Assembly (NCBI GenBank): GCA_050734135.1
Contig: JBOHUG010000039.1
Coordinates: 4,134-68,133 of the forward strand
Reading direction: 5' to 3'
Source of the DNA: Candidatus Dormibacteria bacterium
Lineage (GTDB): Bacteria > Chloroflexota > Dormibacteria > Aeolococcales > Bog-877
DNA length: 64,000 nt
Shown: positions 13,523 through 16,542 of the stretch, piece by piece
Layout of the letters: every line of letters starts with the position of its first letter
Position numbering within the stretch: the stretch's first letter is position 1
Made by a program: the position numbers and the translations under genes
Notes under the pieces: model-generated
Seen by the model: only the letters and a program-made list of their open reading frames with translations
Databases searched by the model: none
What the model was told of the DNA's origin: nothing

Positions 13523-14887
13523 TTGGTCGAGGTTCTAACCCTGGAGACCCCGGAACTCGGGGATCGCACCTATCTCGTCCACGATGGCGATCAGGGAATC
13601 GTCGTCGATCCCCAGCGAGATACCGACCGCGTGCTGGCGCTGGCCGACTCGGCCGGGGTCAAGATCAGTTGCGTGGCGGAGACCCACATCCACAACGACT
13701 ACGTGTCGGGGGGGTGGGCGCTGTCCCAGTCGGTAGGTGCCCGGTACCTGGTGGCCGCTGCCGACGATGTCTCATTTCAACGCCAATCGGTGAGCGAAGG
13801 GGATCGGATCGTTGTCGGCGGGCTCACCTTGAGGACACTGGCGACCCCCGGGCACACCCAGAGTCATCTCTCCTTTCTGCTCTCATCTGGAGGCGGACTC
13901 CGGGCCCTCTTCAGCGGAGGGTCGCTGCTCTATGGCGCCGTGGGCCGCACTGACCTGGTGGCGCCGGAACTCACAGAGCCGCTGGCCCGCGCCCAGCGCC
14001 GCTCAGCGCTCCGCCAGGTCGCCTTGCCGGCGGGCCTCGACCTCTACCCCACCCACGGATTTGGGAGCTTCTGTGCCAGCGGCACAAGCTCGGTGGCCGA
14101 CCCCGGTCACACGATTGGGACCCAGCGCACGACCAACCCTGCCGTGACCGGCGACGAGGAGGGCTTCGTCCGGGCGCTGTTGGCAGGGTACTCCCTCTAC
14201 CCGCGCTACTACGCTCACATGGGTGCTCTGAATCTGGAGGGGGCGGCTGCTCCCGAACTGGGGCTACCTCCGGAAATAGAGATCGCTGAAGTTGCCCGGC
14301 GGATCCGGAACGGGGAGTGGGTGGTCGATCTCCGGACTCGAACCGAGTTCGGGCCGTCCCACATCGTCGGCACGGTGAACTTCCCCACCGGCGAACTGCT
14401 GGCGACCTACGTGGGTTGGGTTGTCCCCTGGGGCGCTCCCCTGACTCTAGTCGGCAGTAGCGCGGAGGCGGTGAGCCGGGCTCGGCGTGATTTGGCTCGC
14501 ATCGGGATCGACTGGCTCGCCGGCTGGTCGAGTGCGCCCCTGGCGGAGCTGCAGGAGAGCCTGGGAAAGTCGTCGTACCGGGTGACCGACTTCCGGGGCC
14601 TGGCCGAGGCGGTGCGCTCCCAGGACGTCCAGATCCTCGATGCGCGTCGACCCGACGAGTGGCACGAGCGGCACATCAAGAACGCGATCAACATCCACCT
14701 ACCCGATCTGCCGACCCGGGTAGACGAGCTGCCCGAGCGACCCATCTGGGTGCACTGCGGCGCCGGCTACCGCGCCGCCGTAGCAGCCAGCCTGCTCGAT
14801 CGGGCGGGCCGCGAAGTGGTGCTGGTGGACGATGACATCGCTCGGCTCGGCGAGGTCGGTCTGGAATTGGTGAGTGGTTCGGAATAG
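13523..14887 (+). CDS. MBL-fold metallo-hydrolase fused to two rhodanese domains (persulfide-dioxygenase/sulfurtransferase-like)
   Basis: MBL motif ETHIHNDYVSGG. The first rhodanese domain lacks Cys; the second carries the active loop HCGAGYR. TTG 13523 lies 6 nt after a strong AGGAGG (13511-13516). Confidence 0.85.
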   Translation: MVEVLTLETPELGDRTYLVHDGDQGIVVDPQRDTDRVLALADSAGVKISCVAETHIHNDYVSGGWALSQSVGARYLVAAADDVSFQRQSVSEGDRIVVGGLTLRTLATPGHTQSHLSFLLSSGGGLRALFSGGSLLYGAVGRTDLVAPELTEPLARAQRRSALRQVALPAGLDLYPTHGFGSFCASGTSSVADPGHTIGTQRTTNPAVTGDEEGFVRALLAGYSLYPRYYAHMGALNLEGAAAPELGLPPEIEIAEVARRIRNGEWVVDLRTRTEFGPSHIVGTVNFPTGELLATYVGWVVPWGAPLTLVGSSAEAVSRARRDLARIGIDWLAGWSSAPLAELQESLGKSSYRVTDFRGLAEAVRSQDVQILDARRPDEWHERHIKNAINIHLPDLPTRVDELPERPIWVHCGAGYRAAVAASLLDRAGREVVLVDDDIARLGEVGLELVSGSE

Positions 14888-14913
14888 CGTCCGGATCGGA
14901 CCCAATTCCGACC

Positions 14914-14919
14914 TATCAT
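14914..14919 (+). promoter_or_regulatory. -10 box TATCAT, 6 nt upstream of the HIT ATG (leaderless candidate)
   Basis: TATCAT-gacctg-ATG with no SD. Confidence 0.5.
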
Positions 14920-14925
14920 GACCTG

Positions 14926-15267
14926 ATGCCTGCCGACTGCCTGTTCTGCCGGATCGTGGCTGGGGAGTTGCCTTCCGACGAGGTTCACCGGGAACCGGGC
15001 ATTCTCGCCTTCAAGGACATCCACCCCGTCGCCGAGACCCATGTCCTGGTGATCCCCGAAAAGCACATCGAGGATTTGCGCCAACTGCGGGCGGAGGACG
15101 CCGGGCTCTGGCTCCGCCTAACCCAGGTGGCCAACGAGGTGGCGTCTGATCTGGGGCACGAGGAGGGCTACCGCTTCTATGTCAGTGTCGGCGCTGCCGG
15201 CGGGCAGACCGTGCCCCATCTTCATATCCACGTGATGGCTGGGAGCATGCGCCGCCTTCCATCCTGA
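14926..15267 (+). CDS. HIT (histidine triad) family protein
   Basis: CLFCRIV N-terminus and the histidine triad PHLHIHVMAG. Confidence 0.9.
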   Translation: MPADCLFCRIVAGELPSDEVHREPGILAFKDIHPVAETHVLVIPEKHIEDLRQLRAEDAGLWLRLTQVANEVASDLGHEEGYRFYVSVGAAGGQTVPHLHIHVMAGSMRRLPS

Positions 15268-15348
15268 TTCGTGTGCGGCCGCCTCGGGTATTGTTGGTAG
15301 GCGGGTCGGATTTTTGGGCCCCGGTGTGGGCGCTGGAGTGCACTTCAG

Positions 15349-16542
15349 ATGGCGTTGAGTTCGCGGGAAATGGTCGACCAGGCCCGTCGGGTGGTTGCGG
15401 AGGTAGCGCCCCAGGAGCTGCGGGTGCGATTGGCCAGTGACGGACAGCGTCAGCTGCTCGACGTGCGCGAGCCGGAGGAGGTCGCCCAGGGGGTGATCCC
15501 AGAGGCCGTAGTAATTCCCCGAGGATTTCTTGAGCTGCGCGTGGAATCGGCGATTCCCGATCGGGCCACTCCGATCGCGGTGTACTGCGCCTCCGGAGTG
15601 CGGTCGCTCCTGGCGGCTAGGACACTGCACGCGATGGGGTATTCGGACGTGGTCTCCCTCCAGGGCGGCTACAACGCCTGGAAGGACCAGGGCCTTCCGG
15701 TCACCGTGCCGCACGCCTTCACTTCCGAGCAGCGCGAGCGGTACAGCCGGCACTTCCTCCTCAGCGAGGTGGGCGAAGCTGGTCAGGCCAAGCTGCTCGA
15801 CGCCAAGGTGCTCCTCCTGGGAGCCGGCGGCCTCGGCGCGCCCGTCGCCTATTACCTGGCTGCGGCAGGAGTGGGCACCATCGGACTGGTGGACTTCGAC
15901 CGGGTGGAGCTGAGCAATCTGCAGCGACAGATCGTCCACACCATGGACCGGCTGGGCATGCTCAAGACCGAGTCGGCGGCGATTGCCCTCAGGGCGCTGA
16001 ACCCGGACGTCAAGGTGATTGAGCACAACCTCCGCCTCGACAGCTCCAACGCGGCTGAGCTCTTCGCCCATTACGACATCATCGTGAACGGAAGCGACAA
16101 CTTCCCAACCCGTTACCTTGCCAACGACGTCGCGATTTTCTTGCGCAAGCCGCTGGTCGATGGCGGGATCTTCCGCTTCGAGGGTCAGGTCACGAGCATG
16201 CTCCCCTTCGAGTCGGCCTGCTACCGCTGCCGCTACCCGGCCCCCCCACCGCCTGAGGAGGCGCCCAGTTGCTCCGAGGCGGGCGTGCTCGGAGTTCTGC
16301 CGGGACTGGTCGGACTGGTCCAGGCCACCGAGGTGGTGAAGATGATCCTGGGCATCGGCGAGACATTGAGTGGGCGGCTGCTGCACGTCGATGCTCTGAC
16401 TATGGAGTTCAACACCTTCCGGCTGCGCCGGGACCCGGAGTGCCCGGTCTGCGGCGAGCATCCCTCGATCACCGAACCGATCGACTACGAAGGGTTCTGC
16501 CTCAACCCCAGCTTGACGGTATCGGCGGCAGCGGTAGCCTGA
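15349..16542 (+). CDS. rhodanese-ThiF/MoeB adenylyltransferase-sulfurtransferase (MoeZ-like, with the rhodanese domain N-terminal)
   Basis: aa 1-~115 form a rhodanese domain with the loop YCASGVRS. This is followed by RYSRHFLL...LLLGAGGLGAPVAYYLAAAGVG...NLQRQ and the two zinc CxxC pairs CYRC / CPVC. Confidence 0.88.
   Translation: MALSSREMVDQARRVVAEVAPQELRVRLASDGQRQLLDVREPEEVAQGVIPEAVVIPRGFLELRVESAIPDRATPIAVYCASGVRSLLAARTLHAMGYSDVVSLQGGYNAWKDQGLPVTVPHAFTSEQRERYSRHFLLSEVGEAGQAKLLDAKVLLLGAGGLGAPVAYYLAAAGVGTIGLVDFDRVELSNLQRQIVHTMDRLGMLKTESAAIALRALNPDVKVIEHNLRLDSSNAAELFAHYDIIVNGSDNFPTRYLANDVAIFLRKPLVDGGIFRFEGQVTSMLPFESACYRCRYPAPPPPEEAPSCSEAGVLGVLPGLVGLVQATEVVKMILGIGETLSGRLLHVDALTMEFNTFRLRRDPECPVCGEHPSITEPIDYEGFCLNPSLTVSAAAVA

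Follow-up and report, generated by a model that had tools for sequence, protein, structure and literature searches.

A rhodanese-ThiF activating enzyme, a HIT protein and a CstB-like protein side by side in Dormibacteria: a probable lineage-specific juxtaposition of known gene kinds

We analysed a stretch of 64,000 nucleotides from a Candidatus Dormibacteria bacterium (assembly GCA_050734135.1, contig JBOHUG010000039.1, positions 4,134 to 68,133 of the forward strand), referred to below as the window. Three adjacent genes in it encode a metallo-beta-lactamase (MBL) hydrolase fused to two rhodanese-type domains (gene 1), a HIT protein (gene 2) and an E1-like adenylyltransferase in which a rhodanese domain precedes the ThiF domain (gene 3, here "the E1"). 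An earlier note, made from the letters of the window, had described them as a sulfur-relay block. With a probability of about 70%, we conclude that the locus brings together, in one lineage, three kinds of gene that are each known independently, and that it is not a dedicated relay system. The elements of the locus are as follows.

13523-14887, + strand: gene 1, MBL-RHD-rhodanese protein, 454 aa (Pfam Lactamase_B and Rhodanese)
14926-15267, + strand: gene 2, HIT protein, 113 aa (Pfam HIT)
15268-15348, + strand: spacer between the HIT gene and the E1 gene, carrying a hairpin with a U5 run after it and a GGGTATTGTTG / GGTCGGATTTT element
15349-16542, + strand: gene 3, rhodanese-ThiF E1, 397 aa (Pfam Rhodanese and ThiF)

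All three genes have to do with sulfur or nucleotide chemistry. Gene calls on contig CCXGXT010000060.1 (GCA_973417115.1), which encodes an identical E1, reproduced the coordinates and shared direction that the earlier note had given for the three genes, and the motifs it quoted (ETHIHNDY, HCGAGYR and YCASGVRS) were all found in the translations. The spacers measure 38 bp between the MBL-rhodanese and HIT genes and 81 bp between the HIT and E1 genes.

Evidence for this conclusion comes from the surroundings of related E1 genes. An exhaustive search with the E1 against 1.84 billion cluster representatives (50% identity) returned 5,868 matches at E-values up to 1e-30. We compared 157 loci from outside Dormibacteria, comprising 80 genome loci (there were no Dormibacteria among the matches listed) and 77 metagenome loci. 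Neither a HIT nor an MBL gene was found near the E1 in any of the 157, even at E < 0.01 within the retrieved flanks, and the sole "MBL-Rhod" matches were to the rhodanese domain of the E1 itself. The metagenome scan added three Dormibacteria loci; its remaining members are 52-57% identical and belong to other groups. Among the Dormibacteria, the arrangement varies with the identity of the E1:

E1 77-87% identical (three genomes): MBL-rhodanese, HIT and E1 genes all kept
E1 76% identical: FolD-like gene followed directly by HIT and E1, no MBL-rhodanese gene
E1 73% identical: CysH and a Sat/CysC fusion in the MBL-rhodanese slot, methyltransferase gene after the E1
E1 66-67% identical: no HIT, MBL-rhodanese, MurE or FolD-like gene, and neither orf71 nor orf360 (both downstream of the E1 in the window)

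The slot upstream of HIT and E1 is variable within Dormibacteria. The MBL-rhodanese gene is kept in four of six close genomes; one has CysH (PAPS reductase) and a fusion of ATP sulfurylase and APS kinase (Sat/CysC) instead, and one has nothing. In the 73%-identity relative, these genes occupy 2778-5215 (L085/L086) directly upstream of the HIT-E1 pair, and the HIT gene begins 256 bp downstream of the Sat/CysC fusion. In one of the 77-87% relatives, the MBL-rhodanese and HIT genes are 759 bp apart, with a small additional open reading frame (ORF) between them. The HIT-E1 pair is kept down to an E1 identity of 73%. At 66-67% it is lost along with all of the flanking genes, and we infer that the link decays with general synteny. 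In the 66%-identity relatives, a 134-aa gene lies upstream of the E1; considered as a diverged HIT gene, it showed no similarity to one. A conserved sulfur-relay module made of the three genes finds no support in these comparisons: HIT and MBL genes are absent from the E1 surroundings in the 157 loci outside Dormibacteria, the MBL gene is present in four of six close genomes, and the HIT-E1 pair disappears at 66-67% identity.

The E1 belongs to a family that is already catalogued. Its rhodanese domain spans residues 21-113 and its ThiF domain residues 132-367; these were the only domains found with Pfam, and no peptide-clamp domain was among them. It scores 537.8 bits against NCBIfam NF006444 (cut-off 449), with residues 6-386 aligned to positions 4-385 of the 387 in the profile. 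NF006444 corresponds to PRK08762 (CDD) and is a curated equivalog model named "molybdopterin-synthase adenylyltransferase MoeB"; a protein at NCBI that is 100% identical to the E1 (encoded on contig CCXGXT010000060.1 of the Dormibacteria metagenome-assembled genome GCA_973417115.1) already carries the name MoeB. The E1 falls below the cut-offs of the MoeZ-type models (370 versus 647 bits for NF005902, MoeZ; 343 versus 633 for NF005646). In an alignment of 22 family sequences, C80, G83, R85 and S86 of the CxxGxR rhodanese loop are invariant or nearly so. The same alignment shows conservation of the ThiF residues G158, G160 and G163 (GxGxxG), R193/Q194, D250 and the zinc cysteines C291, C294 and C365, and C368 in the window sequence supplies the last cysteine of the second CxxC (CPVC). 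In its domain order, length and conserved residues, the E1 agrees with the NF006444 family.

MoeZ (MoeZR, Rv3206c of M. tuberculosis), MOCS3 and Uba4 contain the same two domains and presumably share the adenylation and persulfide chemistry. Their rhodanese domain is C-terminal to ThiF, whereas in the window E1 the order is reversed. This reversed order, which the earlier note regarded as unusual, proved not to be rare, and this correction is the main value of the analysis. Apart from the full-length match to NF006444, roughly 44 among the 150 best cluster representatives align with the E1 in the same order over both domains, whereas the MoeZ order prevails in the remainder. At least 80 genomes contain a full-length colinear copy (50-62% identity), and metagenomes contributed 77 more. 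Judged by full-length copies among the listed matches, at least 10 phyla carry the N-terminal rhodanese order. The record titles name Binatia, Myxococcota, Thermodesulfobacteriota, Nitrospinaceae, Entotheonella, Chloroflexota, Actinomycetota, Acidobacteria, Gemmatimonadaceae, Rokubacteria and Proteobacteria, and the cultured bacteria among them include Corallococcus exercitus and a Conexibacter sp. No PDB chain colinear with both E1 domains was found. The earlier note had also allowed that both the architecture and the HIT neighbour might be common, known MoeZ contexts; the architecture is indeed common, but the HIT gene is not a common neighbour (0 of 157 loci).

To describe the surroundings of the family, we took the 80 genome loci and clustered, without prior assumptions, the ORFs lying up to 3.5 kb from the E1. 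Leaving aside shadow ORFs of the E1, the largest clusters comprised a protein of about 90 aa ending in ILPAMAGG, a pyridoxal phosphate-dependent cysteine synthase and a JAMM/MPN protease. The first matches PF02597 and models of the SAMP1/MoaD family, the second matches TIGR01136 (cysKM) at cut-off, and the third matches a desampylase model below cut-off. A CysO-like carrier with the AMAGG end lies directly downstream of the E1 on the same strand in 83 of the 146 loci that have at least 400 bp of downstream sequence (57%), at a median offset of 21.5 bp. A CysM-like (CysK/M-family) gene was detected near the E1 in 68 of the 157 non-Dormibacteria loci and a JAMM gene in 51. Of the 64 loci with 4 kb or more of flanking sequence on each side, 19 have all three genes near the E1. 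In several high-G+C genomes (L013, L024, L025, L034, L038 and L042), the stop codon of the E1 is overlapped by the CysO-like gene or borders on it, with offsets down to -27 bp. Such an arrangement suggests that the E1 and its carrier are translationally coupled.

The same gene set, cysO-cysM-JAMM, defines the CysO pathway of M. tuberculosis. There, MoeZR serves both MoaD and CysO and is the E1 of the CysO-dependent cysteine pathway (PMC3227635). Because the cysO-cysM-JAMM genes adjoin the E1s of the N-terminal rhodanese family, this family most likely serves the function of MoeZ, with the two fused domains in reverse order. Their occurrence in other phyla points to a MoeZ-like thiocarboxylation of carriers, and not solely to the annotated "MoeB" role.

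In contrast to the 57% of family loci with a CysO-like gene directly downstream, the window E1 has no adjoining carrier, CysM or JAMM gene. A cluster of the CysO-CysM-Mec+ type was not found beside it, and carrier, CysM and JAMM genes were likewise unmatched in the Dormibacteria loci L083-L090. In the whole 64-kb window, no six-frame ORF both ends in GG and resembles a beta-grasp protein. A hidden Markov model profile built from 18 CysO-like carriers taken from beside homologous E1s, used together with approximate sequences of E. coli MoaD and ThiS and M. tuberculosis CysO as seeds, gave noise only in the window (best E = 0.26). In the comparison loci, by contrast, 88 carriers were picked up with this profile. 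The two approaches agree with the earlier note that the window holds no carrier of the ThiS, MoaD or CysO type. Among the Pfam-scanned window genes and the annotations of the called genes, there were also no molybdenum cofactor, thiamin, CysM or JAMM genes; a Cys/Met pyridoxal phosphate enzyme is encoded 30 kb from the locus. The absence of an adjoining carrier is normal for the family, since 43% of its loci likewise have none. These include the nearest relatives from outside Dormibacteria, Binatia and Myxococcales with 60-62% E1 identity.

We propose that gene 3 is a housekeeping enzyme for the activation of sulfur carrier proteins, and its chemistry and carrier partners are predicted by homology to MoeB, ThiF, MoeZ and MOCS3. 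The ThiF domain would bind ATP and adenylate the C-terminal glycine of a beta-grasp carrier of the MoaD, ThiS or CysO type. A persulfide on Cys80 of the fused rhodanese domain would then attack the acyl-adenylate, and reduction would free the carrier thiocarboxylate for the synthesis of cysteine (via CysM), molybdopterin, or thiamin or thio-tRNA. The carrier genes are presumably located elsewhere in the genome, as they would be for the 43% of family loci that lack an adjoining one.

Gene 1 starts at a TTG codon at 13523, 5 nt past a GGAGG, and its product has a known architecture. Residues 16-428 align with PDB 3TP9 (E = 5e-56) and residues 22-432 with 3R2U (E = 4e-43). The AlphaFold model (pLDDT 83.8, pTM 0.80) superimposes in Foldseek with a TM score of 0.87 on 3TP9, an Alicyclobacillus protein with the same three-domain layout. 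Judging by its organism and architecture, we take 3R2U, a protein of S. aureus COL, to be CstB. The persulfide dioxygenase (PDO)-RHD-Rhod architecture of S. aureus CstB is that of gene 1, in which the middle domain (about residues 245-345) contains no cysteine, aligns with the RHD of 3TP9 and 3R2U and corresponds to the RHD of CstB.

In CstB, Fe(II) is bound by H56, H119 and D145, and the protein also employs two cysteines, C201 in a mobile loop and the rhodanese cysteine C408 (PMC12934615). The two histidines are kept in gene 1 as H55 and H111, and C408 and R413 as C412 and R417 (HCGAGYR). However, the aspartate ligand D145 is replaced by Gly133 ("LFSGGSLLYGAVGRTDL" versus "LFSGDFVFVGDVGRPDL", i.e., FSGGSLL versus FSGDFVF). 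Glycine occupies this position in all 120 of the best homologues, which are 51-100% identical and come from Dormibacteria and Actinomycetota. The motifs HxHNDY, PGHT and HGFGSFC are invariant among the same 120, and G132/G133, C412 and R417 are invariant in an alignment of 12 sequences. Both histidine ligands, the loop cysteine and the rhodanese cysteine are likewise invariant in the subfamily. Further differences are the motif HxHADF in CstB versus HxHNDY in gene 1, and the cysteine loop. CstB has C201-G202, whereas gene 1 has C184, invariant within HGFGSFC and followed by A or S, in a loop (181-194) predicted at pLDDT below 50. Genes of a cst-like operon (a persulfide sensor such as CstR, a CstA-type sulfurtransferase and SQR) were not found beside gene 1, which lies among genes for FolD-like, ADH, MurE, HIT and E1 proteins.

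By their sequences, gene 1 and its homologues form a large, coherent subfamily of Actinomycetota and Dormibacterota, with a predicted metal site unlike that of the characterised persulfide dioxygenases. As the iron-binding carboxylate is absent, the subfamily may not be a persulfide dioxygenase. A chemistry different from that of the Fe(II) dioxygenase CstB is possible for these MBL-RHD-Rhod proteins with the Asp-to-Gly change, although we put it at somewhat below even odds. With its CstB architecture and altered metal site, gene 1 would handle a low-molecular-weight persulfide or thiosulfate. Genomic contexts of its orthologues elsewhere vary. At one actinobacterial locus (L172, 6001-12867), the orthologue lies directly upstream of genes for a Fer4/NrfD protein, a molybdopterin oxidoreductase and a chaperone, a set that looks like a polysulfide or thiosulfate (Psr/Phs-like) reductase.

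Gene 2 matches Pfam HIT with 83.5 bits (cut-off 21.5) and contains the triad motif HLHIHVM and an N-terminal CxFC motif. In the PDB, three bacterial HIT proteins match it best, followed by HINT1 and E. coli hinT (E = 7e-22 to 1e-17). The HxHxHxx triad, the CxFC motif and the size of about 113 aa are shared with the purine nucleoside phosphoramidases HINT1 and E. coli HinT, but the protein falls short of the NCBIfam hinT equivalog NF007965 (67.2 versus 206 bits). From these features, gene 2 is predicted to be a generic nucleotide hydrolase of the HINT branch, not of the Fhit or GalT/Apa branch. Hydrolysis of aminoacyl-adenylates is reported for HINT enzymes. Together with the action of Fhit proteins, also of the HIT family, on adenylylsulfate (PMC4613722), this makes the idea of the earlier note that gene 2 could act on adenylates chemically plausible, though it stays a speculation.

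The 81-bp spacer between gene 2 and the E1 folds at -30.8 kcal/mol, no better than shuffled sequences (z = 0.64). Conservation of its GGGTATTGTTG and GGTCGGATTTT motifs extends to 5-6 related genomes, and the spacer may hold a terminator or the -10 element of a promoter.

Four observations weigh against a mere juxtaposition of known genes. The three genes are co-oriented with short spacers. A sulfur-metabolism gene, either MBL-rhodanese or CysH with Sat/CysC, lies just upstream of the HIT-E1 pair in five of the six close genomes; this lends weak support to a sulfur-assimilation neighbourhood, as the theme is more consistent than one would expect by chance alone. A profile of CysO-like carriers, run against a collection of 5.8 billion proteins, showed no Dormibacteria carrier among its best 120 matches, which all came from other lineages (e.g., Thermoleophilia) and are uninformative for this phylum. 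Finally, a literature search returned no biochemical study of any protein with the N-terminal rhodanese-ThiF order, so the family is catalogued yet apparently uncharacterised; nor did it bring up anything relevant on the molybdenum cofactor in Dormibacterota.

The first two observations would fit a real sulfur-relay operon in this clade, in which gene 1 passes persulfide or thiosulfate sulfur to the rhodanese domain of the E1 and the HIT protein hydrolyses stalled or mis-formed acyl-adenylates, or other AMP adducts, from the E1 reaction. The trio in four of six close genomes, the sulfur-related nature of the alternative CysH and Sat/CysC occupant and the reported hydrolysis of aminoacyl-adenylates by HINT enzymes are in line with such an operon. 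We nevertheless regard it as unlikely. HIT and MBL genes are missing from the E1 surroundings in the 157 loci of other phyla, one close relative has the 759-bp gap with an extra ORF and another lacks the MBL gene, the linkage fades no later than that of unrelated flanking genes and no earlier, and a conserved hairpin, U-run and -10-like motif separate the HIT gene from the E1.

A related view, which we consider quite unlikely, is a clade-specific partnership of HIT and E1. In it, the HIT protein would clear dead-end carrier-AMP or other AMP adducts, or couple APS and sulfite chemistry to the thiocarboxylation of carriers, and the variable upstream gene (the CstB-like protein without the aspartate, or CysH with Sat/CysC) would supply the sulfur. 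If true, a HIT-E1 partnership with a swappable sulfur-supply gene would be a previously undescribed three-part layout for sulfur relay.

The HIT protein could instead be tied to sulfate activation, degrading or interconverting APS-type nucleotides, with the E1 merely adjacent. Its position 256 bp from Sat/CysC, with CysH, in the 73%-identity relative and the adenylylsulfate activity of Fhit proteins (PMC4613722) speak for this. Yet the arrangement occurs in one genome only, no sulfate-activation gene was found in the 64-kb window by Pfam scans and gene annotations, and gene 2 falls in the HINT branch, not that of Fhit or GalT/Apa. We consider this tie very improbable. A juxtaposition of known gene kinds, with gene 2 as a generic HINT-type nucleotide hydrolase, remains the preferred explanation.

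The remaining features near the locus, and the one RNA gene that Rfam detected in the window, are as follows.

11782-13068, - strand: FolD-like protein, 428 aa
16628-16843, + strand: orf71, small helical protein, 71 aa, no Pfam or NCBIfam match
16894-17976, + strand: orf360, 360 aa, no Pfam or NCBIfam match
19936-20012: tRNA-Val (CAC)

Orthologues of orf71 follow the E1 in all five related genomes that cover the position, and share the C-terminus W-x-DMS. The earlier note had judged that orf71 is no carrier ending in GG; the lack of a family match and of a conserved internal GG bears this out. We also considered orf71 as a cryptic carrier that exposes its GG after processing, and rejected it, as the orthologues have VS or AG in place of that GG. 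Despite the constant position and conserved C-terminus of orf71, it is scarcely credible that the E1 acts on it as a non-canonical neighbouring substrate by MccB-like C-terminal adenylation, given that orphan E1s of Binatia and Myxococcota, 60-62% identical, have no orf71, that no peptide-clamp domain was detected in the E1, that the internal GG is not conserved and that a methyltransferase gene separates the E1 from orf71 in L085. Orthologues of orf360 were detected in L083, L085 and L092, while in L091 the match is confined to the first ~110 residues; the gene is syntenic downstream in the clade.

The window has a G+C content of about 67%, and the rest of it encodes mainly housekeeping functions by Pfam, including hutH/hutU/hutI-like proteins, an aminotransferase, and GlcD-like, MurE, ADH and FolD-like proteins. 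Further genes encode S6-SSB-S18, ROK, SerA, ArgS, GroEL and PntAB. The FolD-like protein has an Ala-rich helical C-terminal extension of about 120 aa past the dehydrogenase/cyclohydrolase domains and is encoded near the hutH/hutU/hutI-like genes (2051-6746). By eye only, the extension resembles a domain of the cyclodeaminase type, for which there was no Pfam call. Rfam detected no riboswitch, either in the whole window at gathering score or in 13000-17000 at E-values up to 1. Scans for consensus signals, which are uninformative for the host phylum, gave no promoter and one chance-level terminator-like site (16947-16963) inside orf360.

Two leads follow from this locus. The CstB-like subfamily that lacks the aspartate ligand is the most useful by-product of the analysis. 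The other is the family of E1s with an N-terminal rhodanese domain, which is widespread and seemingly never studied biochemically.

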